Shown: positions 825-55,215, numbered from the stretch's first letter. The stretch: DNA of 58,174 bases from Minisyncoccota bacterium (GCA_041658485.1 JBBAAE010000004.1:1-58174); one strand, 5' to 3'. Notes: generated by a model not told the origin, from the sequence alone. Program-made: numbers and translations.

Positions 825-865
825 CAGCCAGCGTATAGCTTCTAGCTGATAGCTTTTAGCTTTTG

Positions 866-895
866 AGGCGACGCTTCGTCGGATCCGAAGGGATC
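866..895 (+). repeat. 30-bp double-hairpin dispersed repeat, copy 1
   Basis: AGGCGACGCTTCGTCGGATCCGAAGGGATC; related copies at 13742, 37526, 37568 and 41071 (reverse). Confidence 0.8.
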
Positions 896-913
896 ATAGG
901 AGAAACTTCCTAC

Positions 914-1818: not shown

Positions 1819-1893
1819 GTAGAGTGTACTCTAGCAAAATATGATCTGTTTTGAAAGCTAGACGCTAGCCCCTAAACGCTATACGCTAGTTGA

Positions 1894-17270: not shown

Positions 17271-17443
17271 AGCAGGGTCTAGTGGTTAGGGGTTAGGGGT
17301 TAGCGTTTAGGGTTTAGCTTTCAAAAAACGTCTTTCACAAAAGGCGTTTTTTGCTATACTCAGCGTATTAAAAGAGTGAGGTTCTCAGATAGGCAGGACG
17401 GCTCGCCGAACCTGAAATCTGCGAATCTCATAACTAAAGAGAT

Positions 17444-19605: not shown

Positions 19606-20901
19606 ATGATAGATGTAATGGAAATAGCCGAGGAGAACAAAAAAGCACTTGTCGACAACGCTCTTCCATCTAAAGACGAGCTTCTATTGGCTGCGCCGAC
19701 ACAGGAACCTCACTCCGTAATGGTGGTGAATACCCCGACACAACCCATCGCTCCACCTAAAACACTCCCTGTCATTGAAAAAAACGTAGAGAAGCCGATA
19801 ATGCAGGCGCCTTCATTGCCGAAATTTAAAACGGTAGAAGCGTTAGCAAAAGCGGTAAGTTCTTTGTATACAGGCAATGCGGTAGTTGAAGCAACGAAGA
19901 AAATTTTTCCTGTTGCAAAAATTGAAAAAGAAATCGAGAAGTCACCTCTGCAATCTACAGCTGCCGCAAATCCTTTTGAAAGAAGCGCTCGTGAGATAGG
20001 TCTCGAGGAAGAGCCCGTAAGAGAGAAAAACCCGCCACCAGAAATTAACGCAATAAAACAACCTGCTGAGACCGACACTGGACTTCCTCGTGTGCGTACC
20101 TATGCAAACGACATCAGTATTGAAATCAGAAAACGAAACACTACGCTCACTTCAATTGTGGGGGCAGAACAACAGCGCACAATGACCGAGGGGCCATATG
20201 AAGACACTGCGACAATAACCAAACGCGCTAACCGCATGCGAATGTTTTTAATGGGAGCAGTTTTTCTTACTGCCATTGGAATACTGAGCCTCGGCGCCGC
20301 GTTCGTTTTTAATAAACAAACAAACATAAGCACGTCGGAGCGCTTGCTCATACCTGCAAATCACTCAAGAGCGGTAGAGTACGCACCCGAGGAAGCCCTA
20401 CCTATTACTCTCGGAAAGATAAAAGACTCCGCGACACTCAACCTTGGGGAAGTGGAAGCATTTATTATTACTAAAAACGGAATTCCACTTACCACCACCG
20501 ACATCCTTGGTCTTTTTGGTGCGCCAAATGAACTAGTGCGGAACGCGCGAGATGTCATGGTTGGCGTACACGCGTTCGACCATAACCAACCGTTTATTTT
20601 AATTACTGTTTCTGCATACGATCATGCATTCGATGCAATGCTCTCATGGGAAACTCGTATGAATGAAGGATTAGGGAATTTCTTCAGACCGTCATCGCTT
20701 GCTCCCGCAAGCATCGCGTCTACTCCTCCTGCGCTCACATTCACTGATCGTACTATTAAAAATACTGACGTCCGGGAAAGTCAGTTGGAGTGGCACATCG
20801 TGTATACCTTCCTTCGCCCTGATCTCATCCTCATCACTACAAACGAAAGCACGCTTCGTGAAGTAATAACTCGACTTTCACTGCAAAGTAGCCAGAACTA
20901 G
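19606..20901 (+). CDS. Hypothetical single-pass membrane protein
   Basis: Low-complexity N-terminal half, RVRTYANDI motif, one TM (FLMGAVFLTAIGILSLGAAFVF) and a globular C-terminal domain. Confidence 0.7.
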   Translation: MIDVMEIAEENKKALVDNALPSKDELLLAAPTQEPHSVMVVNTPTQPIAPPKTLPVIEKNVEKPIMQAPSLPKFKTVEALAKAVSSLYTGNAVVEATKKIFPVAKIEKEIEKSPLQSTAAANPFERSAREIGLEEEPVREKNPPPEINAIKQPAETDTGLPRVRTYANDISIEIRKRNTTLTSIVGAEQQRTMTEGPYEDTATITKRANRMRMFLMGAVFLTAIGILSLGAAFVFNKQTNISTSERLLIPANHSRAVEYAPEEALPITLGKIKDSATLNLGEVEAFIITKNGIPLTTTDILGLFGAPNELVRNARDVMVGVHAFDHNQPFILITVSAYDHAFDAMLSWETRMNEGLGNFFRPSSLAPASIASTPPALTFTDRTIKNTDVRESQLEWHIVYTFLRPDLILITTNESTLREVITRLSLQSSQN

Positions 20902-20960
20902 CCACTAGGGTATAGCCAATAGGGAAATTTCAAAATCAGACCCTACACCCTAGTGGCTAG
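20898..20960. repeat. Heptamer-arm hairpin
   Basis: Perfect 14-bp inverted repeat CTAGCCACTAGGGT (20898-20911) / ACCCTAGTGGCTAG (20947-20960); includes the upstream stop codon. Confidence 0.65.
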
Positions 20961-36736: not shown

Positions 36737-37522
36737 ATGAAAACTCACACAACAGCAGAGAGAGAAGAAGCAAAGAAGAAGTTGCCACAAGCACTGTACG
36801 ATTTTTTAGCTTCACCATCACTCACAAAAATATATCTTGGGATACAGAAAAAACACGATTTAAATTTGCGACAACTTTTGCTGTTTACTGATATCGCAAA
36901 CATTACACTTATTGGTCTTGAGGTTGAGTCCGCACTTGAAACGAACTTGCACCAAGTCCTGCATGAGCTTTCAAGTGAGGGAACTCGAGAGCTTGTTGCA
37001 GACATTAACGACCGCGTCTTTAAGGAAGCCCGACGGCGAATTATTGAAAATATACCCGAGCCGAGCGTCTGGAGCAAGCGAGAAGTTGCACCATCACTTT
37101 CCGAAGAGGCGCGAGCAGAGGAAGCAGAGCGTGATGCTATAGAAAACATGGCTGACGATGATCCAAAATTGCTCGCAGCGTATGAAGCTGATAAAGCAGA
37201 AGCATTAAAAAAAGAAGAAGAAAATCAAAAAGAATTGGCGTTCGCGCTCGAACAGGCAAAAAACGATCCCGTCATCATCGAAGGAAATGACTTAGACATG
37301 GAGGAGGACGCCGAAAAAGAGCTGAGCACTTCCGTAGATGGGGCGCCAGTCAGCACTATAGTTGAAGAAAAAATGGGAACAGTGGCGCCAACAAAACCTG
37401 AACAGGATCCAATCCAAACACCGACATCAGAAAAACAAGAAAAGGTGATCCCCGTGATACCCGAACCACAAAAACCCGCATACAAAGGAGGAGTTGATCC
37501 GTACCGCGAACCAGTAGAGTGA
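36737..37522 (+). CDS. Hypothetical protein of the T4SS-like locus
   Basis: Helical N-terminal domain, acidic coil, and the C-terminal motif VDPYREPVE. Confidence 0.7.
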   Translation: MKTHTTAEREEAKKKLPQALYDFLASPSLTKIYLGIQKKHDLNLRQLLLFTDIANITLIGLEVESALETNLHQVLHELSSEGTRELVADINDRVFKEARRRIIENIPEPSVWSKREVAPSLSEEARAEEAERDAIENMADDDPKLLAAYEADKAEALKKEEENQKELAFALEQAKNDPVIIEGNDLDMEEDAEKELSTSVDGAPVSTIVEEKMGTVAPTKPEQDPIQTPTSEKQEKVIPVIPEPQKPAYKGGVDPYREPVE

Positions 37523-37525
37523 AGT

Positions 37526-37597
37526 AGGCGATGCCTCATCGGGTCCGTAGGGACCATGATAGTGAATAGGCGATGCTTCATCGGATCCGAAGGGATC
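37526..37597 (+). repeat. 30-bp double-hairpin repeat, tandem copies 3 and 4
   Basis: AGGCGATGCCTCATCGGGTCCGTAGGGACC (37526-37555) and AGGCGATGCTTCATCGGATCCGAAGGGATC (37568-37597). Confidence 0.8.
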
Positions 37598-37666
37598 GTT
37601 TAGGGAAATCCTAGCTAGATGAAAAAACACTAGACGCTAATCACTAAACGCTATACCCTTATCAGT

Positions 37667-38107
37667 ATGCAATTCCAAGTTCCTCAATTCGTTGAAGTTG
37701 AAGACAAAATTTTCGGTCCTCTCACCGCCGTACAATTTATATACCTCGTTGGGGGAGGCGGATTCCTCGTTGCACTGTGGTTTGTCCTGCCTCATTGGCT
37801 GGCAGTAATTATTGGTGGGCCAATTGCACTGTTGGGTGCTGGGCTCGCATTCTACAAAATCAACGACCGCCCACTCATAAATGCACTTGAGTCCGGCTTT
37901 CAGTATCTCTTTCGCACAAAACTCTACATTTGGGAGAAGAAACAATCAAAGACTGTCCTCCCTGACGAAATTACTCTTCCTGGGCAAACACCTGCGGAAG
38001 ACCCAGCAAAATACGCGCCTTCGGCCACTTCAAACAAAATTAAAGACCTAGCGTGGAGCTTAGATATAAAGGAGAGTATGTATTCGGACAAGAAACAACA
38101 GAGGTAG
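37667..38107 (+). CDS. PrgI-family (VirB3-like) membrane protein
   Basis: MQFQVPQFVEVEDKIFGPLTAVQFIYL, two TMs, then INDRP...F; upstream of VirB4. Confidence 0.85.
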   Translation: MQFQVPQFVEVEDKIFGPLTAVQFIYLVGGGGFLVALWFVLPHWLAVIIGGPIALLGAGLAFYKINDRPLINALESGFQYLFRTKLYIWEKKQSKTVLPDEITLPGQTPAEDPAKYAPSATSNKIKDLAWSLDIKESMYSDKKQQR

Positions 38108-38137
38108 GGGTTAGTGGACAGGGTTTAGGGTTTAGGG
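38103..38137 (+). repeat. G-rich heptamer arm upstream of the four-helix-bundle gene
   Basis: GGTAGGG GTTAGTG GACAGGG TTTAGGG TTTAGGG. Confidence 0.75.
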
Positions 38138-38150
38138 AAAAGAAAAAACC

Positions 38151-38531
38151 GTGGGAAACATTCAAAAGAAAGTTCTTTCGCATAAAGATCTCATAGTGTG
38201 GCAAAAATCTATGGATTTGGTTTCTGCTATATACAAAATTACTAAAAAATTTCCAGATGACGAACGATTTGGGCTCACATCTCAAATGAGGAGGTCTGCC
38301 GTTTCTATTCCCTCAAATATTGCTGAGGGTCGTGTACGACGAACCACAAAAGACTACATACACTTTCTTCATGTTGCGCTTGGTTCATCGGTGGAGCTAG
38401 ATACCCAGTTAGATATAGCACTTAGAGAAAATTTTATTCAAAAGTTAGACTATAATGAAATAAGCCCTCTTATTGAAGAGGTGAGTAGGATGCTTTCAGG
38501 ATTGATTTCATCCCTAAACGCTAAACGCTGA
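38151..38531 (+). CDS. Four-helix-bundle protein (23S rRNA IVP / Avd-like family)
   Basis: SHKDLIVWQKSMDLV..IY..T..FPDDERFGLTSQMRRSAVSIPSNIAEG..R....YIHFL..ALGS..EL.TQL; GTG start. Confidence 0.93.
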   Translation: MGNIQKKVLSHKDLIVWQKSMDLVSAIYKITKKFPDDERFGLTSQMRRSAVSIPSNIAEGRVRRTTKDYIHFLHVALGSSVELDTQLDIALRENFIQKLDYNEISPLIEEVSRMLSGLISSLNAKR

Positions 38532-38543
38532 CCCCTAAACACT
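38512..38543 (+). repeat. C-rich heptamer arm at the end of the four-helix-bundle gene
   Basis: CCCTAAA CGCTAAA CGCTGAC CCCTAAA CACT; encodes the last codons and the stop; 26/32 complementary to 38106-38137. Confidence 0.75.
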
Positions 38544-38550
38544 CCGATCT

Positions 38551-39225
38551 ATGTCTGGTGGCGACGAAAAAACAACAAAAACAAAAGCGGCTCAGGACTT
38601 CGTTCCAGTAAAGGAAGTTCGTGGGGGTGTGATGGTAATGAAAAACGGCACACTCGTCGGTGTAATGCTTGCTTCAAGTATTAACTTTGCACTTAAGTCA
38701 GAGGACGAACAAAACGCCATACTCTCGCAATTTCAGAGCTTTATGAATTCGCTTGATTTCAGTGTTCAGTTTTTCATACAATCTCGAAAGCTCGATATCA
38801 GGCCCTACATAGCACTTCTAGAGGAACGACTTAAAGCGCAGACAGAGGAACTGATGAAAATACAGGTGCGTGAATATATAGAGTTCATCAAAACATTCAT
38901 TGAGAGAGCGAACATCATGAGCAAACATTTCTTTATCGTGATTCCGTATTCTCCACCAGCGCTTGATATAAAAAAGGCAGTGCAAAATAAAGTGTTTGGG
39001 AAAACAAATCTGTCATCGAGAGATGCAAACTCCATTGGTTTTGAGGAACACCGTACACAGTTGGAGCAGAGAATGGGAGTGGTGGAACAAGGATTGGCCC
39101 GAACAGGCGTGCGAACTGTTCCTCTCGGCACTGAAGAGGTCATAGAGCTTCTCTATAAAGAATTCAATCCTGGGGAATTGGAAAAACCAATCATTGTGGA
39201 TCAAACTAACGCACCACTTATATAA
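38551..39225 (+). CDS. VirB4-associated (TraC/TraE N-terminal-like) protein
   Basis: QDFVPVKEVRGGVMVMKNG...SINFALKSEDEQNAIL..F..FMNSLDFSVQFFIQSRKLD; 2 nt upstream of virB4. Confidence 0.7.
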   Translation: MSGGDEKTTKTKAAQDFVPVKEVRGGVMVMKNGTLVGVMLASSINFALKSEDEQNAILSQFQSFMNSLDFSVQFFIQSRKLDIRPYIALLEERLKAQTEELMKIQVREYIEFIKTFIERANIMSKHFFIVIPYSPPALDIKKAVQNKVFGKTNLSSRDANSIGFEEHRTQLEQRMGVVEQGLARTGVRTVPLGTEEVIELLYKEFNPGELEKPIIVDQTNAPLI

Positions 39226-39227
39226 TT

Positions 39228-41039
39228 ATGGGAATCTTCGATACATTTTTAGGTAACGCTGGGAAAAATAAGGAGACCCTAACTCCTTTTTTACCTAAAG
39301 ATATTTATGAAGCTGCGAAGCTCGACTTTGCAGACATCATTGCACCATCAGCTCTGAAAATTACTCCGCGTGAAATGAACTTGGGCGACAAGCTCGTGCG
39401 CACCTTCTATGTTATTTCATACCCACGCTTTTTGTCAGGCACTTGGTTTGCTCCAATCATTAATCGTGACCGAGTGCTTGATATTTCCATATTCATTCAC
39501 CCTGTAGATACGGCCGCAATTCTTCGCAAGTTTCAGAAAAAAGTTGCTGAGGTACAAAGCCAAATAATGACTCGCCAAGAAAAAGGGATGGTACGAGACC
39601 CTATGCTCGACACAGCCTACCAAGACATCGAGCAACTCAGAAATCAACTTCAGCAAGCGCAGGAGCGAGTATTTGATGTGGGTCTCTATATCTCAATTTA
39701 TGGCACAAACCAAGACGAATTAGACAAAACTGAAGCAGAAATGCGCTCAATTCTTGACTCAAAACTTGTATACATAAAACCCGCACTATTCCAGCAGGAG
39801 CAAGGATTCAAGAGCGTTATACCAATAGGGGATGACCAACTGGCAGTTAATTCAAAGATGAATTCTGCACCGCTCTCAAGTTTCTTCCCGTTTATTTCCT
39901 TCGATCTTACGAGCGATAAAGGAATCCTCTACGGTATAAACAGACATAACTCATCATTAATTCTCTTTGATAGATTTTCGCTTGAAAACTACAACTCAGT
40001 GACCTTTGCAAAATCAGGTTCAGGAAAATCATACGGCACCAAACTTGAAATTTTGAGATCATTGATGTTCGACACGGAGGTCATCGTTATAGACCCTGAA
40101 AGCGAGTATGAATATCTTGCAAATGCGGTGGGTGGAAGATTTTTCAATATCTCGCTCTCATCAGAAAATCGCATCAATCCTTTTGATTTGCCTGTGCCTC
40201 GCGAAGATGAATCGCCAGCTGATATTCTTCGCTCAAACATCATCAACCTCGTGGGACTATTTCGCTTAATGCTCGGCGGTCTTACACCTGAAGAAGATGC
40301 AATTATTGACCGTGCCATTACAGAAACGTATGCGCTTAAAGACATCACCGGTGCAAACGATTTCACCGGCATGGAACCACCACTCCTTTCTGACTTCGAG
40401 TTGGTACTTGCCGGCATGGAGGGAAGTGAGTCTTTAGTTCAGAGAATTACAAAATACACCAAGGGCACATGGTCTGGCTTTATTAATCGGCCAACCAATG
40501 TGGACATCAACAAAAAGTTCGTTGCGTTCTCAGTTCGAAACATGGAGGACGAGCTGAAAACGATTGCGATGTACATCATTACGCACTTCATTTGGAATGC
40601 GGTGAGAAAAGATTTGCGCAAACGACTTCTTGTTATTGATGAGGCATGGTGGATGATGAAATCAGAAGATACTGCCGCGTTCCTTTACGGAATGGCAAAG
40701 CGCGGAAGAAAATACTATCTTGGTCTCGCTACCATTACTCAAGATGTTGAGGACTTCCTAAAATCACCCTACGGATTGCCGATGCTTACTAACTCATCAA
40801 TCCAACTTCTTTTGAAGCAATCACCAACATCCATAGATGCCGTACAAAAAACATTCAACCTCACGGAGGAAGAAAAATATCTTCTGCTTGAATCTGATGT
40901 GGGTGAGGGGATTTTCTTCGCGGGACTCAAACATGTCGCCATAAAAATAATTGCATCCTACACTGAAGACCAAATAATCACTTCAGACCCATCTCAACTT
41001 CTTGCAATAGCCCAGCAGAAGAGGGAAGCCTCTGAGTAG
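39228..41039 (+). CDS. virB4: VirB4-like type IV secretion ATPase
   Basis: FDRFSLENYNSVTFAKSGSGKS (Walker A), IVIDPESEY, INPFDL, LLVIDEAW (Walker B), KRGRKY, TITQDVEDF. Confidence 0.9.
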   Translation: MGIFDTFLGNAGKNKETLTPFLPKDIYEAAKLDFADIIAPSALKITPREMNLGDKLVRTFYVISYPRFLSGTWFAPIINRDRVLDISIFIHPVDTAAILRKFQKKVAEVQSQIMTRQEKGMVRDPMLDTAYQDIEQLRNQLQQAQERVFDVGLYISIYGTNQDELDKTEAEMRSILDSKLVYIKPALFQQEQGFKSVIPIGDDQLAVNSKMNSAPLSSFFPFISFDLTSDKGILYGINRHNSSLILFDRFSLENYNSVTFAKSGSGKSYGTKLEILRSLMFDTEVIVIDPESEYEYLANAVGGRFFNISLSSENRINPFDLPVPREDESPADILRSNIINLVGLFRLMLGGLTPEEDAIIDRAITETYALKDITGANDFTGMEPPLLSDFELVLAGMEGSESLVQRITKYTKGTWSGFINRPTNVDINKKFVAFSVRNMEDELKTIAMYIITHFIWNAVRKDLRKRLLVIDEAWWMMKSEDTAAFLYGMAKRGRKYYLGLATITQDVEDFLKSPYGLPMLTNSSIQLLLKQSPTSIDAVQKTFNLTEEEKYLLLESDVGEGIFFAGLKHVAIKIIASYTEDQIITSDPSQLLAIAQQKREASE

Positions 41040-41130
41040 CGTTTAGTGGTCAGGGTTTAGTGTTTAGCGAGATACCTTCGGAGCCGACGAAGCGTCGCCT
41101 AAACACTAGCCACTAAACGCTAAACCCTAA
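41037..41130. repeat. Heptamer-arm hairpin enclosing a reversed 30-bp repeat (copy 5, 41071-41100)
   Basis: G-arm TAGCGTTTAGTGGTCAGGGTTTAG (identical to 48878-48901), then GATACCTTCGGAGCCGACGAAGCGTCGCCT, then C-arm CTAAACACTAGCCACTAAACGCTAAACCCTAA. Confidence 0.75.
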
Positions 41131-41283
41131 GGGCTTTTAGTGTGCTGTCCCTCCTATGGCCTGCCTACGGCATCGGCCATTCCCGAGGACGGTATCGGAA
41201 TAAACATGGAGCAGTCCATGTTTATTCCCCTAAACGCTAACCCCTAAACGCTAAACGCTCCGTCGCACCTTATAATAAGAACT

Positions 41284-42257: not shown

Positions 42258-42899
42258 ATGCCACGCACACTTTTCATCTTTTCGCTCATTCTCATTTCAC
42301 TCTTCGTGGTGGCAACTCCGGCTCATGCTGAAGTTACACCTCAGTTTCAATTTCAACCAATTGTGTCGGTACCGCTTCCTACTGGGGGCGCCGTTGATGC
42401 TGAGACATCACTCACTGATTACTTAAACGGAATATTCGTACTTACCATCGCTGTCGCAACAATTCTCGGGGTCGTCATGATTACATTTGATGGTATCCGT
42501 TACATGACATCCGATGCAATCGGCACAAAAAAAGCAGCAATCGAAGGACTGCAAGGGGCGGCCATCGGATTGATTTTACTTCTACTCGCGTACGTCATTC
42601 TCAACATCATCAACCCCCAAATACTCAATATAAAATCGCTCAATGACGACATACGCGGTTTGGGGGGAAGCAGTTCGAGCGAAACAACACCCCCAGATAG
42701 TACCGTAGCAACAGGAGCCACTGGGGCTCTTAACCCGAGCGCTTTGCCGAGCGGGACTGAATTGCGAGCGTACGATGGAACATTGAGCGCTGGATGTACC
42801 TTGACATGCTGGCGTGATAATACATTTTCAGCACCAACAGGAGGTGAGTGCACAACTGGTGACGCTGTACAAAGCTGTCCTGCCCCCGGAACTCCATAA
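42258..42899 (+). CDS. T4SS pilin-like (TrbC/VirB2-like) protein with a Cys-rich tail
   Basis: Signal peptide, then a two-helix hairpin YLNGIFVLTIAVATILGVVMI...GIRYMTS...AAIGLILLLLAYVILNIINPQIL; 4 Cys at the C-terminus. Confidence 0.72.
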   Translation: MPRTLFIFSLILISLFVVATPAHAEVTPQFQFQPIVSVPLPTGGAVDAETSLTDYLNGIFVLTIAVATILGVVMITFDGIRYMTSDAIGTKKAAIEGLQGAAIGLILLLLAYVILNIINPQILNIKSLNDDIRGLGGSSSSETTPPDSTVATGATGALNPSALPSGTELRAYDGTLSAGCTLTCWRDNTFSAPTGGECTTGDAVQSCPAPGTP

Positions 42900-42903
42900 C
42901 ATC

Positions 42904-44118
42904 ATGCGACGAACGCTTATCATTTCTGGTCTGGGACTACTTGCTGTCGCACTCTTTGCTGTTGGATACTTTTTCGTGTTTCAAAAAACAGACAGCAACA
43001 CCGCTGTAGCGCCGAAAGATTTCTTCAGTGCATTTTTCCCATTCGGGCAAGGAAACCGAACTCCAGACAAGCCTGCAAATGAAACGGTCGGGGAAGTCGC
43101 ACAAAAAGTAACTGCTCGTATCCGTCAGGTGAGTGCCCGTCCCACTGCAGGAGCGTGGTTTACTTCTCCATCGGGAACAACAACTCCACCTCATATTCGG
43201 TTTACAGAGAGAGCAACAGGACACATATTTGAAACACCTACCGACTCCTACGCGGAACTACGAATTTCTAACACCACAATTCCTCTCATGCAGGAACTTA
43301 TTGTAATTAATGACACCGCACTTCTCCTCCGTACACTATCCGACACGGAAACTATTTCAAACGCATTTGGCGTACTAAATGCGACGAGTTCGCAACAATC
43401 TCTCACCGCATCCGCCCTCAAAGGGTTCCAGCGCGTCGCAGTAGCCAAAAATGGATTAAGTATGATGACAGTCACTGAAGTTCTGCGAGGTTCACAAACT
43501 GAACTTATGCAACCTGATGGCACAAAATCTCGCACAATCCTCCTCTCCCCAATTCGCTCATGGATACCCCTCGCAGGAGACAGTCGTTTCTTTATACAAA
43601 GCGCTCCTTCTTCAGGAGCTTCGGGATTCTTATATGAAATTAAAAGCAACGGTGGTCTTACTAAAATATTGAGTGATATCCCTGGACTTCTCGGAGTACC
43701 AAGTCCAACAGGGCGCTATATTCTCTACAGCGGAGCAACGGGAGTAAAGATTTTTCTTGGAATGATCGACACAAAAACGGGGCAAAGTTATACACTCCCT
43801 CTAAAAACCCTTGCAACAAAGTGCACATGGATTTCAGAAGACACTCCACGCGTCTTTTGTGCAATATCAGATCCCTTGCGAGGAGGGACAGCAACACTCC
43901 CGGATGATTGGCTCCTAGGTAAAATATCCTTTAGTGACTCTGTATGGATTATCCGCCCCATTGAAAATACCGCGCATTCATTGGGATATCTTCAGGAAAT
44001 AGCAAACACCCCCATTGATGTCCTCAACCCTACCGTTTCTGCCGATGGTAACTTTGCTCTCTTCATAAACAAAAATGACCTCAGCGTGTGGTCACTCGAC
44101 CTAAATAGAGATCAATAA
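42904..44118 (+). CDS. Membrane-anchored hypothetical protein, possible beta-propeller
   Basis: N-terminal TM; SPTGRYILYS and SADGNFALF resemble TolB/WD40 blade motifs. Start set at ATG 42904. Confidence 0.65.
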   Translation: MRRTLIISGLGLLAVALFAVGYFFVFQKTDSNTAVAPKDFFSAFFPFGQGNRTPDKPANETVGEVAQKVTARIRQVSARPTAGAWFTSPSGTTTPPHIRFTERATGHIFETPTDSYAELRISNTTIPLMQELIVINDTALLLRTLSDTETISNAFGVLNATSSQQSLTASALKGFQRVAVAKNGLSMMTVTEVLRGSQTELMQPDGTKSRTILLSPIRSWIPLAGDSRFFIQSAPSSGASGFLYEIKSNGGLTKILSDIPGLLGVPSPTGRYILYSGATGVKIFLGMIDTKTGQSYTLPLKTLATKCTWISEDTPRVFCAISDPLRGGTATLPDDWLLGKISFSDSVWIIRPIENTAHSLGYLQEIANTPIDVLNPTVSADGNFALFINKNDLSVWSLDLNRDQ

Positions 44119-45736: not shown

Positions 45737-45925
45737 CAGGGGACAGCGTTTAGGGGTTAGTGTTTAGAGGTTGAGTTCTGGATGCTAGGCGACGCTTCTG
45801 ATGCTTCATCACCTGACTCTTAGTCATACTGTCGAGTGCTAGTCGAGGGTTCGGCTCCGTAGAGAACAGGCTTCATCGGATTCAAAGATGCCCCCTAAAC
45901 GCTAAACACTTTCCCCTAACCCCTA
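45737..45925. repeat. Heptamer arms enclosing ~120 bp of degenerate repeat cargo between rpmH and rnpA
   Basis: G-arm CAGCGTTTAGGGGTTAGTGTTTAG near 45744-45767; C-arm CCCTAAACGCTAAACACT...CCCCTAACCCCTA at 45894-45925; AGGCGACGCTTC at 45787. Confidence 0.65.
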
Positions 45926-46078
45926 TTTCCCTTTTACCTTGCTTACAACAGTGAGCTTGGCGCGACCCTTACGACGACGATTCTTTAAAACCTTCCTGCC
46001 TGAGGTGGTGGCCGTACGGACTAAGAAACCGTGGGTTGTGGCTCTCTTTCTTTTTTTAGGTTGGTATGTTCTTTTCAT
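45923..46078 (-). CDS. rpmH: 50S ribosomal protein L34
   Basis: Hand-translated [51 protein letters not shown] (below the track cut-off). Confidence 0.95.
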
Positions 46079-47772: not shown

Positions 47773-48873
47773 ATGAAAATTGAAATTTTAAGAGAGAATT
47801 TAGAGAAAGCTGTTGCTATAGCATCCAAAGTTAGTAATAAGAACCTTTCGTTACCTGTTTTTGGTTGTGTAGTAATTGTTGTTGAAGGTGATAGGGCTGT
47901 ACTTCGCGCAACAAACCTTGATTTAAGTGTAGAAGTTATTCTTAAAGCAAAAATAATCCAAGATGGAATTATTGCTATTCCCGCACACATACTCGCACAA
48001 ACTACTTCAGCGCTCACGGATCAGAAGTTGTTATTAAAAACATCAGGAAATAATCTTATTATTGATGGTGAAAGGGGGACTACCTCTATAGCGCTTATTG
48101 ACCCATCTGAGTTTCCAACTCTATCGTATGTTAAGGATGGGGTTGGAAGTTCCGCAACCTTACCTGTTCGAGAATTTATAACGGCACTGAAGTCAGTTTC
48201 ATTTGCAGCCTCAACTTCTAGTGTAAAACCAGAACTTTCAAGTATCTCCCTTACTTTAGAAAAGGGGGAGCTTGTTGCTGTGGCTACAGATTCATTTCGT
48301 CTTGCTGAAATAAAAATACCTATAAAAACAAAAAATTCATTCAATTCTGTATTAATACCAGCTCGAAATGTTCCGGATATATTGAGGGCGATTGAGTCAG
48401 GTGTGGATGTTGAGGTTCGTGTTGGGGATAATCAGTGTTCATTTATATCTGATTTTGGGCACATCACTTCTCGAACAATAGATGGATCCTTCCCAGACTA
48501 TCAAGCAATTATTCCGCGTGATTACGTTGCTTCGGCGACATGTTTAAAAGAGGATGCATCACGCGCCTTTCGAAAAATTTCAATTTTTACCGATTCTTTT
48601 AATCAGGTACACATTTCATTAAAGGCTTCTGAAAAAACATTCACTGTTCGTGCAGTGAATGCTTCGGTGGGAGAAACTATTGACCATATCCCAGCAGTTC
48701 TTGAGGGTGAAGATATTGATATTAATTTCAATGCAAAATATATCGTTGACGCTCTTTCGATAGTGGTTGGTGATAGTGTTACTTTCTCTGTAGCTGGTGC
48801 TGGAAAGCCGATGGTTATGAATGATGTCCCAAATAAAGGCTTCACATACTTAGTGATGCCGATGAATAGGTAG
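47773..48873 (+). CDS. dnaN: DNA polymerase III beta sliding clamp
   Basis: LRATNLDLSV, VATDSFRLAE, IDGSFPDYQAIIP, FNAKYIVDAL, YLVMPM. Confidence 0.97.
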   Translation: MKIEILRENLEKAVAIASKVSNKNLSLPVFGCVVIVVEGDRAVLRATNLDLSVEVILKAKIIQDGIIAIPAHILAQTTSALTDQKLLLKTSGNNLIIDGERGTTSIALIDPSEFPTLSYVKDGVGSSATLPVREFITALKSVSFAASTSSVKPELSSISLTLEKGELVAVATDSFRLAEIKIPIKTKNSFNSVLIPARNVPDILRAIESGVDVEVRVGDNQCSFISDFGHITSRTIDGSFPDYQAIIPRDYVASATCLKEDASRAFRKISIFTDSFNQVHISLKASEKTFTVRAVNASVGETIDHIPAVLEGEDIDINFNAKYIVDALSIVVGDSVTFSVAGAGKPMVMNDVPNKGFTYLVMPMNR

Positions 48874-48877
48874 GTAT

Positions 48878-48950
48878 TAGCGTTTAGTGGTCAGGGTTTA
48901 GAGAATAAATTCCCCAATGCTCCCCCTAAACGCTATCCCCTAGCAACTAG
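48878..48950. repeat. Empty heptamer-arm hairpin
   Basis: G-arm TAGCGTTTAGTGGTCAGGGTTTAG, ~22-nt spacer, C-arm CCCTAAACGCTATCCCCTAGCAACTAG. Confidence 0.7.
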
Positions 48951-48952
48951 TC

Positions 48953-49216
48953 ATGAAACTCGTAAATGATTTTCTTGCCCGTTTCCAAAACTTAACACCA
49001 CCAGATGATGCTGTGCGCCGTGCGATTGCTTCAGCTGTTTTTTTTGTTGCAAAAGTTCCTGTGAAAAAAGAAGACGTGTCCATATCAAACTCTGTGGCAT
49101 TTATTCGCTGTTCTTCGGTTGCAAAGAGCGCCATTCAGGTTGCTCGTGGCGCCATTCTCAACGAGCTTTTTCAAGAGATGCCGAAAGCACGAAATACTGT
49201 GAGGGATATCCGTTGA
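48953..49216 (+). CDS. Small protein, possibly DciA/DUF721-like
   Basis: Follows dnaN; VSISNSVAFIRCSSVAKSAIQVARGAILNEL resembles the beta-beta-alpha pattern of DUF721. Family assignment is inference. Confidence 0.5.
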   Translation: MKLVNDFLARFQNLTPPDDAVRRAIASAVFFVAKVPVKKEDVSISNSVAFIRCSSVAKSAIQVARGAILNELFQEMPKARNTVRDIR

Positions 49217-49217
49217 G

Positions 49218-49303
49218 AGGTAGGGGTTAGGGAAAAGCGCTTAGTGTTTAGGGGGCACCCCTAAGGATTCTCCCTAAACGCTAGCCACTAACCCCTAAAC
49301 ACT
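49218..49303. repeat. Empty heptamer-arm hairpin between convergent genes
   Basis: GGTAGGGGTTAGGG...TTAGTGTTTAGGGG / CCCTAAACGCTAGCCACTAACCCCTAAACACT. Confidence 0.7.
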
Positions 49304-49304
49304 G

Positions 49305-51416
49305 CTATTGAGTGAATGGAGTTCCATCTACGAAGCCATGTTGAGTTGCCCACGTTCTGACACCCCACTCCCATCGAGCAAATTGTGGATCATTGTTGGG
49401 GTTACTTGGGCGAGCTCCTCGCGGATCATTTTTATCAAGCCAGTAGAGAATTGAGTGCACAGAAACGGTGCCGTCGCTCCCTTGCCATACACCACGAAGC
49501 ACTGGTTTATCGGACGGACCCTCTAAAGGAGTTGCTTCAGGGAAGGGGGTATTAGGGAATTTAGTGAGAGCATATTGCGTAAACTCATGCCAGAGAGGAG
49601 CCACAATGAATCCGGCTATTTTTTTTGCCATAGGGCTGTTGTCGTTATTGCCTGCCCACGCTCCTACGGATATGTCGGGTGTATAGCCTAAAATCCAAGC
49701 ATCACGGTAATCGTTTGTCGTTCCTGTTTTTACTGCAACATGACGACCTGGGAAATTTAATGCGGAAGTTGCTCCGAACTCAGGAGTGCGGGCAACGTTA
49801 TCAGAAAGGATGTCGGAGATGGAGAGTGCGATATTGGCGTCGAGCACTCTTTCGGGCGTTAGTGTGTATGACTTTACCTCATTTCCGTTTTTGTCTTCAA
49901 TACGAAGTATTGCGCGGTATGGATTCCGCACACCTTCGTTTGCAAAAACACCGTATGCACTTGTCATGTCGAGTGGGGTGACTTCGCCACCACCAAGAAC
50001 CAAAGTTAGCCCGTAGCGGTCTGATCCAGCGAGTGTGGTGATACCAAGTGACCGTGCAAGCGAAAGTGCATTGTTTATTCCCACAAGATAGAGCACTTTC
50101 ACTGCGGGGATATTTCTTGATTGTGCGAGAGCATCTCGCAAGGTCATTGGCCCATTAAATTTATTATCGTAGTTTCCTGGTGCATAGCAGGGAGGTGTAT
50201 CGCTCAAGCTTGCTGGTGGGCACTCAGTTGAGAACTGTGTCGGCACATCAAAGAGCACGGTGTTTGATGTGTATCCTTTAGTGAAGGCGGCTGCGTACAC
50301 AAATGGTTTGAATGAAGAACCTGGTTGGCGTTTCGCTAAGGCTATGTTGTAGGCGCCGTTTATTTCTGGATCAAAATAATCTCGGGATCCAGCCATCACA
50401 AGAATGTCTCCCGTTTTTGGTGCAATGGCGACGATACTCGCGTTCTCAGCATTAAATTTCTTCTTATTTTCAAGAGCATTTTTCTTTACAATCTCCTCTG
50501 CTTTGGCTTCAAGGTCGGCGTCAAGTGTAGTAATAATGCGCCAGCCAGACTGCTCTAGTGCACTTGTACCAAACTCTTGTTCCAAGAGCCCTCGAACATA
50601 GAAGACGAAGTGTGGTGCGCGAATACCAGCCGTTGCTTGAGGAGCAAAAGCCACAACCTCAGATTTTGCTAGCGTGTATTCTTGTTCAGATATAAATTTC
50701 AAGTCTTTCATTCGCGAGAGCACAAGATTTTTTCTGTTATCTAAGTCATCGCGATGATTGCCGTACGGTGAAAAGTACGTAGGGGCTTGGGGTAGGGCAG
50801 CGAGGTACGCCGCTTCGGCGAGAGTTACATCTTTTGCGTGCTTGGTGAAGAATTGCTCACTAGCTTCTTCAACACCATAGATAAGTCCGCCGTACGGATT
50901 TCCATTAAGATAGAGCTCGAGGATTTGTTCTTTGGTGAGCACTCGCTCAAGCTTTATTGCAAGAATCCACTCCTTCACTTTTCGTGCGATAGTTTTATCG
51001 ATAGTGAGGATAGAATTTTTTACTACTTGCTGTGTGATGGTTGAACCGCCCTGTTCAAAGCCAAGAGAAAGGACATTAACGATTGTGGCTCGAAGAAATG
51101 CCAACGGGCGTACGCCAGCGTGATGGTAGAATTCCGCGTCTTCTATCGCAACGGTTGCTTGTTTTATGTATGGAGAAATCTCACTTTCTGACACAACAGT
51201 ACGCATCATATTTTGACTCAGATCATCAAGAAGAATAGTACCTGTACGGTCATAAATTTTTGTTGATTGTTCAATTTTTCTAGTCTCCAAAGACTTGATA
51301 TCGGGGATTTTTAATGACACTGCCCAAATGAGTAGAGCCCCTATACTAAATAGTGCAAGCGCACTAATAATGAGGAAAAAAGATTTCTTATTTTTAATCA
51401 AGCGCCGTCTTCGCAT
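49305..51416 (-). CDS. Class A penicillin-binding protein (PBP1A family)
   Basis: Transglycosylase motifs AIEDAEFY, GGSTITQQVVKN and EAAYLAALPQAP; transpeptidase motifs RQPGSSFKP, SRNIP and KTGT. Confidence 0.95.
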   Translation of the reverse strand: MRRRRLIKNKKSFFLIISALALFSIGALLIWAVSLKIPDIKSLETRKIEQSTKIYDRTGTILLDDLSQNMMRTVVSESEISPYIKQATVAIEDAEFYHHAGVRPLAFLRATIVNVLSLGFEQGGSTITQQVVKNSILTIDKTIARKVKEWILAIKLERVLTKEQILELYLNGNPYGGLIYGVEEASEQFFTKHAKDVTLAEAAYLAALPQAPTYFSPYGNHRDDLDNRKNLVLSRMKDLKFISEQEYTLAKSEVVAFAPQATAGIRAPHFVFYVRGLLEQEFGTSALEQSGWRIITTLDADLEAKAEEIVKKNALENKKKFNAENASIVAIAPKTGDILVMAGSRDYFDPEINGAYNIALAKRQPGSSFKPFVYAAAFTKGYTSNTVLFDVPTQFSTECPPASLSDTPPCYAPGNYDNKFNGPMTLRDALAQSRNIPAVKVLYLVGINNALSLARSLGITTLAGSDRYGLTLVLGGGEVTPLDMTSAYGVFANEGVRNPYRAILRIEDKNGNEVKSYTLTPERVLDANIALSISDILSDNVARTPEFGATSALNFPGRHVAVKTGTTNDYRDAWILGYTPDISVGAWAGNNDNSPMAKKIAGFIVAPLWHEFTQYALTKFPNTPFPEATPLEGPSDKPVLRGVWQGSDGTVSVHSILYWLDKNDPRGARPSNPNNDPQFARWEWGVRTWATQHGFVDGTPFTQ

Positions 51417-53025: not shown

Positions 53026-53535
53026 CTATATATTTCGCGCTTGTCTGAATTTGGAGCTTGATTGATGGGCTATTGCAAGTGCTATGGCGTCATATTCATC
53101 GTCGTGACGCTTCATGTTTCCCATGGGAATCAACATGTTTACCATCCGCATAACACTCTTTTTGTCTGCATTTCCTGAGCCTGTCACTGCAATTTTTACT
53201 TCCTGAGGAGAATATTCATAAACCTCAATACCGGCCTCAACTCCCGCAAGAGTTATAACTCCACGTGCTTCTGCAACATGGATTGCCGTCTTCTGATTTT
53301 TTGTAAAGAAGAGTGTTTCTATCGCCAGTGCATCGGGTTTGTATTTTTTTATTGTTTTTCCAAGGTGCTGGAATACTGCACCAAGGCGAATGGGGACAGC
53401 TCCCTTAGGAGGAATAAAGCATTCAGAAAAAATAAGAGCAGTTCCTTCCATCACGGCAATACCCACTCTGTCGTACCCAGGGTCGACAGCGATGACGATA
53501 GGGCTCAGCTTTCTGGTTTCGGCTTTCAGTGGCAT
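53026..53535 (-). CDS. ruvC: Holliday junction resolvase RuvC
   Basis: IAVDPGYDRVG, AIETLFF, EYSPQEVKIAVTGSGNADK, DDEYDAIALA. Confidence 0.95.
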   Translation of the reverse strand: MPLKAETRKLSPIVIAVDPGYDRVGIAVMEGTALIFSECFIPPKGAVPIRLGAVFQHLGKTIKKYKPDALAIETLFFTKNQKTAIHVAEARGVITLAGVEAGIEVYEYSPQEVKIAVTGSGNADKKSVMRMVNMLIPMGNMKRHDDEYDAIALAIAHQSSSKFRQARNI

Positions 53536-53541
53536 AGATGT

Positions 53542-54183
53542 TTACATGAATTGTTCATATAACGTATCAAATGCAAGTTTCATGTCTTTTTTATTGAGAT
53601 AAAAAACGAGCTCTGTATAGGTGGAGGAGAATTCAATCACGTTGATGTTCTGGAAGGTGAGTTGCTGTATCAGGGCATAGACCATTCCGACATGGGCAAT
53701 GTATCTCTCATTGAATTGCGCCCCCACAGCAACGAGCCCTGGCAGTATCGCTTTCGGGCTTGAAGGCATCGCTTTCTTAATGTTAGGCAGAAAATCCTCC
53801 TCAACAAGAATAGTAAGTTCAGCGGTGCCGAACGTTATGACGATATACCCATCTTTGCTACGCACTTCTTTCTCCGCTTTTTCAAGTGCAGCAATATTGT
53901 GTGAGGTTCTTTCGAATGTAATTTCCGCAAGATTTTTTGTGACGTTTATTGAATCAAGTTTTACTTGTTTCAATTGAACGTTCGTTCTCCTTTTTAATGT
54001 TTTAAGGCGTGAAAGCGCCATAGTGATAGCAGCCACACTCACACTTTTCTTCGTGCGCACTTCAATAAGTGGCTTTATAAAACGCGCCGTCTTTGAAAGA
54101 TTCAGTACGCCATTTGAAAGTCCGAAATGAAGAAATCCATCCTTCTCTATGGCTTGCTGTACTGCCTCAGGAATGCTTAGCAT
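53542..54183 (-). CDS. Hypothetical protein with an N-terminal helical domain and ACT-like C-terminal domains
   Basis: GVLNLSKTARFIKP..., GMVYALIQQLTFQNINVIEFSSTYTELVFYL (ACT-like). Start set at ATG 54183. Confidence 0.65.
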   Translation of the reverse strand: MLSIPEAVQQAIEKDGFLHFGLSNGVLNLSKTARFIKPLIEVRTKKSVSVAAITMALSRLKTLKRRTNVQLKQVKLDSINVTKNLAEITFERTSHNIAALEKAEKEVRSKDGYIVITFGTAELTILVEEDFLPNIKKAMPSSPKAILPGLVAVGAQFNERYIAHVGMVYALIQQLTFQNINVIEFSSTYTELVFYLNKKDMKLAFDTLYEQFM

Positions 54184-54298
54184 GTTTAAAATATAACATA
54201 ACTTGTTAAAAATCAATAATCTTTACCCAGAAATTAACTTTACCCCCTCATACCGGCACACTTTAAATATTAGCAGTGGTAATAAATAACAAAAGCAT

Positions 54299-54493
54299 AT
54301 GAACTACGAACATCCACCAGAAGGGCCGTCCATTCTCGATATTCTCATTAGCAATGCCGGACGATTAGGAGGGCGACCACGTCCTCTGACGTACACGTCG
54401 GAGACAAGACCTACTTCAATACAGCCCGAGCCGGAAGTAACAGGTCGACGTTACAGGAACATAGAGGGGACAAATATTTATGTTCTTGAATAA
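54299..54493 (+). CDS. Small hypothetical protein (64 aa)
   Basis: ATG ORF after an A-rich leader; overlaps the next micro-ORF. Confidence 0.45.
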   Translation: MNYEHPPEGPSILDILISNAGRLGGRPRPLTYTSETRPTSIQPEPEVTGRRYRNIEGTNIYVLE

Positions 54494-54602
54494 CGAAAGA
54501 CGCTTGCGCATTCTGCCGGAGGAACAATGCTGGATGTGTGGAGGTAAAGGAGGAGATTGCGTTTGGTGTGATGGCACAGGGCGTCAGCCTAACCCCCAGT
54601 GA
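54480..54602 (+). CDS. 40-aa zinc-finger micro-protein
   Basis: Hand-translated MFLNNERRLRILPEEQCWMCGGKGGDCVWCDGTGRQPNPQ, with two CxxCxGxG motifs. Confidence 0.55.
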   Translation: MFLNNERRLRILPEEQCWMCGGKGGDCVWCDGTGRQPNPQ

Positions 54603-54724
54603 ATGAAAAGATATTTACCCTAAATAGTAGAGAGGTTTTGTTATAAATGTAACAAAGGTTGATAAAAACAATAGTTTCTTTAAAAAACTTAAAGAGTAAG
54701 AGCCAGAGTTGTATTCTCTGCCTT

Positions 54725-54874
54725 ATGCAATTTGGTTTTGTTGAAGCTTTCGATAACCGCGCTACCCGCTGTAAGTTGAATTGTAGGAAGGTTGCGCCTG
54801 GTTTTTATGGCACCAAGAAAAATGGCATATTAACTGCTTGTGGTGGCTGCGGTGGTTCGGGATACTCAAGTTAA
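54725..54874 (+). CDS. 49-aa zinc-finger micro-protein
   Basis: MQFGFVEAFDNRATRCKLNCRKVAPGFYGTKKNGILTACGGCGGSGYSS, with Cx3C and CxxCxGxG. Confidence 0.5.
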   Translation: MQFGFVEAFDNRATRCKLNCRKVAPGFYGTKKNGILTACGGCGGSGYSS

Positions 54875-54882
54875 AACCAAGA

Positions 54883-55215
54883 CTATTCTCGATTTCTAAT
54901 CTCCAATTTTTCCATTTTTCTCTCTAGTGCTTTTTCTATGTCTATACCAGCTGCTTCTGCGAGAAAGAGTGACACAATAATGACATCGGCACATTCGTCA
55001 GCGAGCTCATCGTCCCCAGCCGCCATTATTTTTGATTTTCGTTGATATCCAAAACGAGCAAGTACTTGTTCCGCAAGTTCGCCAACTTCTTCGCCAAGTT
55101 TAACGGTGTAGGCGAGTAAGTGAGACGCGTCACCCCGCTCTTTCTTTTGAGTCTGCCAAATAATCGACTCTTGTTTTGTTACCCACGCTTTCAATGTGTC
55201 GGAGAGTAATGTCAT
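54883..55215 (-). CDS. MazG-like nucleotide pyrophosphohydrolase
   Basis: [13 protein letters not shown]...[10 protein letters not shown], the ExxE...ExxD pattern; coupled to ruvB by a 4-nt overlap. Confidence 0.85.

Follow-up and report, generated by a model that had tools for sequence, protein, structure and literature searches.

Between the genes of a Minisyncoccota bacterium (GCA_041658485.1) lie tracts of degenerate 7-nt repeats, and it is these heptamer arrays, as they occur in JBBAAE010000004.1:1-58174 and in the genome around it, that we describe here. That whole stretch of 58,174 nt is referred to as the window; it is contig C4 of a 959-kb Patescibacteria genome in 50 contigs with 44% G+C (G000 where a name is needed). 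Within 48700-49500, the dnaN gene, an open reading frame (ORF) of 87 aa and a penicillin-binding-protein gene are accompanied by two such elements, hairpins A and B. In each, a left arm of TAG-ending units is separated by a short loop from a right arm made up of the complementary CTA units. A first-pass annotation of the window had listed heptamer tracts along its length, all of which we recovered, together with the 24-mer TAGCGTTTAGTGGTCAGGGTTTAG that is identical at 41037 and 48878.

The heptamer spacing is a property of the whole genome. Distances from TAG to TAG peak at 7, 14, and 21 nt (356, 268, and 282 pairs over a background of ~100), and distances from CTA to CTA give 374 pairs at 7 nt against ~100 at neighbouring distances. 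We use “arm” for an in-register chain of at least three TAGs; the genome holds 190 of these, compared with 26-42 in shuffled sequences (~35). Arms vary little in size, with 3-6 units in 189 of the 190 and more than six in the other one, and 121 have at least four units. Similarly, the pattern TAGNGNNTAGNGNNTAGNGNNTAG, i.e. (TAGNGNN)x3-TAG, has 123 matches in the genome, and its reversed control has none.

It is important to remember that arms found through TAG are a circular basis for judging TAG itself. Tracts were therefore also located separately by lag-7 self-similarity, with TAG unused in the search. This gave 310 tracts against 44 in a shuffle, far above lags 5, 8, 10, and 11, and the consensus unit contains TAG or CTA in 193 of the 310. 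Within the lag-7 tracts, conservation at N1-N4, T, A, and G is 0.53, 0.75, 0.55, 0.57, 0.72, 0.84, and 0.81, which makes TAG and the G at N2, two bases past TAG, the conserved positions of the unit, nGnnTAG. The first-pass view of TAG as the best-kept part of the unit is thus upheld in tracts chosen without it. The commonest units are CGTTTAG, GGTTTAG, GGGTTAG, and GGTATAG, and further unit families coexist with them (TAGCCAC/TAGGGTA, TAGCTTC/TAGCACC, and CAGCTTT/AAGCTGA). GGTTTAG resembles the plant telomere repeat TTTAGGG, and we give this likeness no weight. Arms are degenerate mosaics of such units rather than pure repeats, and three-unit blocks common to different arms occur 40 times, where random assembly yields 6.7.

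A genome from another family of the same order, with eight genes of the PF05635 family discussed below (G027), has long and pure TAGTGAG/TAGTGGG arrays of more than 10 units, e.g. at C1:112763-112835. This is a unit family different from that of G000.

Paired arms have a single arrangement, which agrees with the inverted arms of the first-pass annotation: 40 pairs with gaps of 7-80 nt run plus then minus, and none is divergent. Unpaired (solo) arms make up 110 of the 190. A typical cassette is 60-110 nt long and consists of 3-6 nGnnTAG units, a short loop, and a mirror-image arm. Although intergenic DNA makes up 12.5% of the genome, 172 of the 190 arms are mostly intergenic; they occupy 117 spacers, or ~19% of those of at least 50 nt, and the median share of a spacer covered by a paired hairpin is 72%. 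What we are dealing with is a modular cassette family of 190 arms at ~117 intergenic sites, filling most of the spacer in which it lies.

The arms also hug gene ends. In 29 cases the arm donates the TAG stop codon of the neighbouring gene in register, and in 30 more the stop lies 1-15 nt outside the arm. The first-pass annotation had named several genes whose stop comes from, or lies right beside, the first unit of an array; direct inspection bore this out for dnaN, rpmH (45923-46078, minus strand), the ORF at 19606-20901, and the PrgI-family and VirB4/TraG-like ATPase genes. Please note that gene calls for these positional statistics are a crude longest-ORF set, in which an ORF starts at the first start codon past a stop. 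The 50 arms with an ORF start no more than 15 nt away were accordingly set aside, because the arms supply the very stop that defines the called starts. By the same crude calls, TAG makes up 27% of stop codons.

Near-identical strains give direct evidence that whole hairpin cassettes are exchanged, rather than simply drifting. The comparison set consisted of strain contigs L030 (~96% identical) and L032 (~93%), whose flanking genes are 92-96% identical, and of the genomes G016 and G013. Synteny with G016, the closest species genome (DnaN 98%), extends over the window with a DNA identity of 83-95%, and it is at the spacers that the alignment breaks. Among L030, L032, G016, and G013, the hairpins that occupy sites A, B, C, D, E, and G belong to different unit families, often at equal length. 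At site A, after dnaN, the units are of the TAGSGTT type in our genome and of the GATTCAAG/CATGAATCC type in L032, and L030, G016, and G013 have TAGCTTC/TAGCACC units in 2+2, 5+3, and 4+4 copies. At site B, L032 matches our genome except for two substitutions, and L030, G016, and G013 have a hairpin of equal length built on CAG (CAGCTTT/AAGCTGA units), largely without TAG. At site C, exactly one 7-nt unit separates our genome from L032, and G016 and G013 use two other unit families. At 20899-20959, G016 has a CAGCTTC-type hairpin of equal length. The composite element at 45737-45925, where the outermost right-arm unit is the rpmH stop, is set apart from that of L032 by an indel of exactly 7 nt.

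On both sides of the replaced hairpins the coding sequence is kept to the last codon, and the type of hairpin allele does not track the similarity of the flanks. Contigs from three other metagenomes have both hairpins of the dnaN region replaced, with joints at 48867/48927-48953 and 49212-49217/49306. Whole hairpins, and likewise the whole gene-plus-arms unit described below, are exchanged among close strains exactly between coding borders. Within the genus, arrays follow relatedness: matches to (TAGNGNN)x3-TAG number 123 in G000, 51 in G016 (DnaN 98% identical to that of G000), 44 in G013 (88%), nine in G002 (85%), and none in either G010 (70%) or G009 (68%).

Two details of these sites should be recorded. 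The last dnaN codon (in the region 48868-48873) is AGG (Arg) in our genome and CGT (Arg) in L030, G016, and G013, so that the replaced block seems to begin inside this codon with the amino acid kept. In run X1, the source landfill metagenome, Logan contigs break and fork around hairpin B (49087-49306) with minor variants, which suggests either coexisting hairpin alleles or repeat collapse in the source sample.

Some of these differences are what plain microsatellites would produce, that is, arrays that arise and change at each site by polymerase slippage alone (thought to favour 7-nt units), with neither mobility nor a dedicated protein. The 7-nt indel between two strains and the changing unit number within one family at site A are of this kind, and a passage in Rehm 2015 (citing Mrazek 2007; PMC4692102) has heptamer simple-sequence repeats over-represented in many bacteria. 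Slippage sits poorly with the strict convergence of arm pairs, with degenerate mosaic units, with the narrow range of arm length, and above all with the replacement of whole hairpins by unrelated unit families. To this must be added a structured module embedded in the arrays, and arrays set tight against PF05635 genes across phyla, both of which are described below. We consider slippage as the sole explanation improbable.

The first-pass annotation went on to interpret the arms as combined terminator or stabiliser hairpins and translational insulators; on this view they would be selected because three consecutive units close all frames, on either strand, with amber stops. The inverted arms, the TAG anchor, the position at gene ends, and the supply of stops on which it was built all stand; the terminator role and the selected insulator role find no support. 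Termination fares badly on position as well as on structure. A run of at least four T within 14 nt beyond either end is found at seven of the 40 paired hairpins, and in 37-52 kb no heptad hairpin coincides with a terminator-like match. Among spacers of at least 50 nt, the share that holds an arm is 15% for divergent, 17% for convergent, and 18-25% for tandem ones. With so few T-runs, and with divergent spacers as occupied as convergent ones, we would not assign these hairpins to the intrinsic terminators. In addition, the array at 17280-17317 precedes a separate classical terminator, which the relative G002 keeps without the heptamers. This intrinsic terminator (17322-17355, AAAAAACGTCTTTC…AAAGGCGTTTTTT) follows an NYN-domain gene and is conserved in G016 and G002, so the lineage does use ordinary terminators.

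Selection for stops would be in keeping with the arms that donate a stop or lie within 15 nt of one, with the conservation of TAG, and with its share among the called stop codons. Against it, CAG-type hairpins mostly lacking TAG occupy the same sites in strains that are ~96% identical, the TAG of solo arms is antisense 45 times and sense 32 times, and one hairpin copy lies in an untranslated insertion within a 23S rRNA gene. Moreover, any heptamer containing a stop codon gives stops in all three frames when repeated, a necessary by-product that confines such arrays to the ends of ORFs (MacGregor 2015, PMC4679880). That the arms were selected as insulators and terminators is, in our view, very improbable.

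The stems themselves are predicted to be strong (-25 to -43 kcal/mol). Pairing between cognate arms is not better than between non-cognate ones (-27.1 vs -25.9 kcal/mol, P = 0.135), from which it follows that the hairpin potential comes from the shared unit design and not from compensatory evolution. Arm-specific complementarity was rejected as an explanation, since left arms pair equally well with the right arms of other elements. An Rfam scan of the window returned tRNA matches only, with no covariance model matching the hairpins or the module described next, and at 37480-38600 there was no match even at E <= 10.

Stems of this strength raise the question of host function. A stem of ~30 bp may be needed in each spacer as an RNase III site or as a block to 3'-exonucleases, uncoupling or stabilising cistrons, with the sequence otherwise free. 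The genome encodes RNase III (rnc); the elements abut the stop codon and the next start codon; and each strain examined has a hairpin at these sites, often of equal length but of an unrelated unit family. Either orientation yields a stem, which fits the absence of strand bias. A general requirement is nevertheless made unlikely by the 15 of 24 same-genus genomes with zero array matches, and cognate pairing no better than chance partners, the occupation of divergent spacers, which are not co-transcribed, and the abundance of solo arms also speak against host-selected hairpins. We regard this explanation as unlikely, and it is the main rival to the one developed below.

Many of the elements contain more than heptads. 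A 30-nt double-hairpin (DH) module, GGCGAYGCNNCRTCGGRTCCGNAGGGAYCA, is present in ~25-33 elements of the genome, always on the TAG strand and either adjoining or inside an array. Its starts in the window are 867, 13744, 37528, and 37570, with a minus-strand copy at 41075-41098. It consists of two 5-bp mini-hairpins with compensatory changes (CG 11 / UA 11 and AU 12 / GC 8), and 97% of cells are paired, a value reached by none of 500 shuffles. In tandem spacers the module is sense 10 times and antisense seven times, and this lack of strand bias argues against a strand-specific RNA signal.

One of the listed tracts, 38103-38543, is more than a single array, as it contains a cassette that carries a gene. 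The gene (38151-38531), a PF05635/TIGR02436 member with a product of 126 aa, is of the type encoding rRNA intervening sequence (IVS) proteins and is homologous to Xanthomonas XCC0516 (PDB 2GSC). Its protein scores 41.5 bits against the Avd model, under the cut-off of 80, and is thus weakly or distantly Avd-like. The genome has three PF05635 genes, two of them bracketed by TAG-heptad arms and the third by other inverted repeats. The copy on contig C11 has the same arms as the 38105-38551 cassette, plus a DH module ahead of its start codon; the arms around both genes (here 38105-38135 and 38514-38551) have 4-5 units, or 28-35 nt. Besides the 38105-38551 cassette, ~115 sites are gene-less. In G016 and G013 the gene at the same site encodes a protein of 58-64% identity (58% in G016, where the flanks are ~90% identical at the DNA level), and its arms are made of a unit family also used in the gene-less hairpins of those genomes.

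The right arm of the two TAG-bracketed genes (38500-38531; C11:2622-2652) is translated as the tail of the protein, …SSLNAKR and …SSLNPKP (…ASLKAKT in G016), and supplies the stop codon, so that arm sequence and protein tail are coupled. In C26:1330-1900, the third PF05635 gene has inverted arms composed of GGGAAGA words in place of TAG heptads, and after each word comes a small G+C hairpin (period ~20 nt).

The association between arrays and PF05635 extends to other genomes. All 11 relatives with (TAGNGNN)x4 matches have the family, and 23 of the 30 array-less relatives lack it. Across 301 Patescibacteria genomes, the count of (YAGNNNN)x5 matches correlates with the count of PF05635 genes (Spearman rho 0.66), and PF05635 is present in 50 of the 52 genomes with at least 10 arrays compared with 120 of the 249 others. 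A test of single loci covered 79 PF05635 loci from Bacteroidota, Acidobacteriota, Planctomycetota, Firmicutes, Proteobacteria, Patescibacteria, and one archaeon. A period-7 tract lies beside the gene in 58 of these 79; the corresponding numbers for lags 5, 6, 8, 9, and 10 are 0, 2, 15, 4, and 2. The signal is close to the gene, with positive windows in 42 of 74 cases adjacent on the 5' side and in 48 of 74 on the 3' side, in four and one of 74 at distal positions, and in none of 74 inside the gene. At 44 of the 79 loci, the cognate inverted repeats lie above the 99th percentile of non-cognate pairs, and the unit TAGTGGT, present in our genome, is also used by several unrelated bacteria. Laboratory strains such as Bacteroides thetaiotaomicron VPI-5482 and Anabaena PCC 7120 likewise combine the gene family with heptamer arrays.

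Regarding rRNA, a TAG-heptad hairpin (C7:35911-35990; L034 ~5912-5991) lies in an insertion of ~420 nt in a 23S rRNA gene, at model positions ~2620-2656, and adjoins a weak match resembling a group I intron, which at 23.8 bits does not reach the gathering threshold. A second, 5'-truncated large-subunit rRNA is found at 1-1977 of a 3.9-kb contig (C45; L035), with a clear group I intron at 1293-1502 (82.5 bits). The genome bin therefore holds two 23S versions.

Small hairpins of this kind also call to mind repetitive extragenic palindromic (REP) elements and their paired form (REPINs), mobilised by RAYT, a Y1 HUH transposase. The genome has four Y1_Tnp (PF01797) genes, and REPINs are said to have been described by Bertels and Rainey in 2011 as convergent doublets that form intergenic hairpins of ~100 nt, a point for this explanation. 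No arms flank any of these four genes, however, and Y1_Tnp is found in 34 of 41 relatives, array-less ones included; in addition, the arms are tandem heptads rather than short palindromes and the copies are mosaics rather than near-identical. Given Y1_Tnp genes without flanking arms and a presence unlinked to that of the arrays, the RAYT/REPIN connection was rejected, and we hold it to be extremely improbable. A mechanism based on a retroelement or diversity-generating retroelement was rejected in the same way, as no PF00078 reverse transcriptase match was found anywhere in the genome. Compared with MITEs, the miniature transposable elements with inverted repeats, the cassettes do have inverted ends; no duplication was seen at the replacement borders, and the gene-carrying relative encodes a four-helix-bundle protein, which is not a known transposase.

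Our preferred explanation, which we consider probable with a fair amount of room for doubt, is that the tracts are arms of palindromic heptad-hairpin cassettes, that these are gene-less miniatures of PF05635 cassettes, and that they are selfish or near-neutral. The gene-less hairpins would be non-autonomous miniature relatives of the four-helix-bundle cassettes, which may spread or be exchanged by copy-and-replace or by recombination and may persist as selfish or near-neutral filling of spacers. In RNA form they are predicted to make imperfect stems of 25-35 bp, likely to be bound or cut as double-stranded RNA in the way that RNase III acts on an rRNA IVS. The fixed TAG would be part of the identity signal of the unit, through a (T/C)AG anchor common to the unit families, and the three-frame stops would be an arithmetical by-product. 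Such a by-product would keep the arrays out of coding DNA and make ORFs end at the first unit. The first-pass annotation had also raised the idea of a binding code for a single protein, for which the PF05635 four-helix-bundle protein is now a candidate.

Several results weigh against this explanation, and the reader should keep them in mind. We found no transposase partner, no target-site duplication, and no pair of empty and filled sites, so the mobility of the cassettes is something that we only infer. Searches by tblastn at E <= 5 revealed no PF05635 remnants in the gene-less hairpins. Nearly every arm is a unique mosaic, and recently transposed MITEs are usually near-identical copies. The correlation across the 301 genomes ignores phylogeny and repeat richness, and the reversed control pattern gives a rho of 0.47 with PF05635. 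The presence of a hairpin at the same sites in every strain examined, often at equal length, could mean selection and a host function. Finally, the folding and cleavage of the hairpin RNA are predictions. Please note that a processing or stabilising stem for host RNA, the main rival, is compatible with the cassette explanation; the two are not mutually exclusive.

A wider proposal can be put forward tentatively, as a possibility that we would not favour on present grounds. All the heptamer arrays on record for decades (the cyanobacterial short tandemly repeated repetitive (STRR) sequences, the GGGAATC repeats of Xanthomonas, and the TAACTGA repeats of Beggiatoa), and now those at hundreds of sites per Patescibacteria genome, might be arms or orphaned arms of one class of element, with PF05635/TIGR02436 as its signature gene. 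The protein would recognise (T/C)AG-anchored units as single-stranded or hairpin nucleic acid and bring about their copying, exchange, or processing, with the gene-less hairpins as its miniature dependants and the rRNA IVS as one special landing place. In PDB 2GSC the PF05635-type protein is pentameric, and it is distantly related to Avd, which binds nucleic acid in diversity-generating retroelements.

The elements of the window are listed in Table 1.

Table 1. Heptad arms, hairpins, and associated modules in the window (positions counted from its first nucleotide)
Element	Positions	Strand	Context and remarks
Four-unit arm, TAGCTTn-type heptads	836-861	+	Tract recovered at 836-859; just 3' of HU-family gene (552-824)
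DH module GGCGACGCTTCGTCGGATCCGAAGGGATCA	867-897	+	Directly past the 836-861 arm; covariation
Five-unit arm	1858-1888	-	TAG on minus strand; between tRNA-Gly and start of gene at 1894
DH module (13744-13773), then three-unit arm (13775-13798)	13744-13798	+	After CCA-adding/poly(A) polymerase-family gene
Self-complementary CTAG-type tract	16604-16637	.	TAGCTnn / TAGGTGC units; reads as arms on both strands
Six-unit solo arm	17280-17317	+	Between NYN-domain gene stop and classical terminator (~17322-17355)
Complete hairpin, TAGCCAC/TAGGGTA units	20899-20959	.	First TAG is the stop of ORF 19606-20901
Two tandem DH modules	37528-37599	+	37528-37557 and 37570-37599
Four-unit right arm	37630-37653	-	Closes spacer 37523-37666 ahead of PrgI-family gene
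Left arm of gene-carrying cassette	38105-38135	+	First TAG is the PrgI-family gene stop
PF05635/TIGR02436 four-helix-bundle gene	38151-38531	+	Cargo between arms; PDB 2GSC match, E = 1e-29
Right arm of gene-carrying cassette	38514-38551	-	Encodes C-terminus of cargo protein
Complete hairpin	41037-41129	.	After VirB4/TraG-like ATPase gene; first unit is the stop; -43 kcal/mol; inverted DH module (41075-41098) in loop
Additional four-unit right arm	41230-41253	-	Same spacer as 41037-41129; common to strain L032
Composite element, rnpA-rpmH	45737-45925	.	Left arm 45751-45767, degenerate DH-like core, right arm 45895-45925
Hairpin A	48871-48949	.	Fills spacer from dnaN stop (48871-48873, first unit) to ATG at 48953
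Hairpin B	49221-49297	.	Between 87-aa ORF and 3' end of minus-strand penicillin-binding-protein gene; -39.9 kcal/mol

Two further differences from G016 were seen in the window. Positions 53527-54901 (1.4 kb) correspond to only 40 nt in G016 and represent a strain-specific insertion, and G016 has an extra, in-frame-looking segment of 292 nt (its 42776-43067) relative to window position 42896.

To our knowledge, heptamer repeats are the one class of simple repeat that is consistently over-represented in bacteria, and we know of no established function or origin for them. The present genome offers a dense and well-delimited example in a lineage of minimal genomes, with about one-fifth of spacers of at least 50 nt occupied. 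It also offers a concrete partner, the rRNA-IVS four-helix-bundle protein, since in many phyla period-7 arrays are found on the flanks of its genes. Should this link prove true, it would join heptamer repeats, rRNA intervening sequences, and a large family of “hypothetical proteins,” and a selfish or semi-domesticated element would take up some of the intergenic DNA in the smallest genomes of bacteria. For annotators, the arrays explain many TAG stops and abrupt ORF ends, and we would caution against calling heptad hairpins terminators.

How do these arrays compare with what is already known? We see them as a variant of known heptamer intergenic repeats, with a PF05635 partner gene that has apparently gone unreported; in the limited literature searched, no paper was found on heptamer arrays in Patescibacteria or on heptamer arrays linked to PF05635. 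The STRR of heterocystous cyanobacteria are tandem heptamer families in non-coding DNA. Their units differ from those of our arrays, and they are not known to form obligate inverted pairs or to serve as the arms of cassettes. The gene-less, multicopy, intergenic character of our small elements and their inverted ends are shared with MITEs and REPINs, which are believed to descend from, or rely on, a relative with a gene; unlike those, they have yielded no transposase partner, target-site duplication, or near-identical copies.

The GGGAATC repeats of Xanthomonas (Rehm et al. 2015, PMC4692102) are similar in being tandem 7-nt units that lie mostly in intergenic DNA (~90%) near an ORF, in forming convergent pairs (70-75 plus/minus pairs, potential stem-loops), and in occupying the same spacers in sister species with extensive variation in length and sequence. 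Among the proteins of Xanthomonas campestris there is, in addition, a close PF05635 homologue, XCC0516 (PDB 2GSC). The Xanthomonas units differ in being G-rich quadruplex formers, whereas ours are degenerate TAG-anchored mosaics in which several unit families replace each other and a DH module is embedded. The same paper covers related Nostoc repeats and mentions Calothrix heptanucleotides, and the repeats are not linked there to PF05635 genes (PMC4692102). The TAACTGA repeats of marine Beggiatoaceae, cyanobacteria, and Bacteroidetes (MacGregor 2015, PMC4679880) are likewise stop-bearing heptamers with three-frame stops and a patchy distribution across phyla; they overlap upstream ORFs at their ends and precede start codons by a few nt. 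Almost all of them, however, repeat one exact unit in direct orientation (169 direct sets vs one inverted) and point toward the downstream start, and ours are inverted, degenerate pairs without strand bias.

The rRNA IVS bring together hairpin and gene. In Coxiella, the model that has been studied by experiment, a PF05635 ORF (S23p) lies between 28-bp inverted repeats whose stem is cut by RNase III, and the element is regarded as selfish (Warrier et al. 2016, PMC4990558). Horizontal spread is also ascribed to elements of this kind. Insertions with 23S_rRNA_IVP ORFs, and also short ORF-less ones, are found in rRNA genes of the candidate phyla radiation (PMC11270868). Our cassettes similarly have either a PF05635 gene or no ORF between inverted repeats, with arms of 28-35 nt compared with a stem of ~28 bp, in a genome that encodes RNase III and has one hairpin in a 23S rRNA insertion. 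They differ from 23S rRNA IVS in that cleavage is predicted, that the arms are explicit heptad arrays, and that nearly all copies lie between protein-coding genes.

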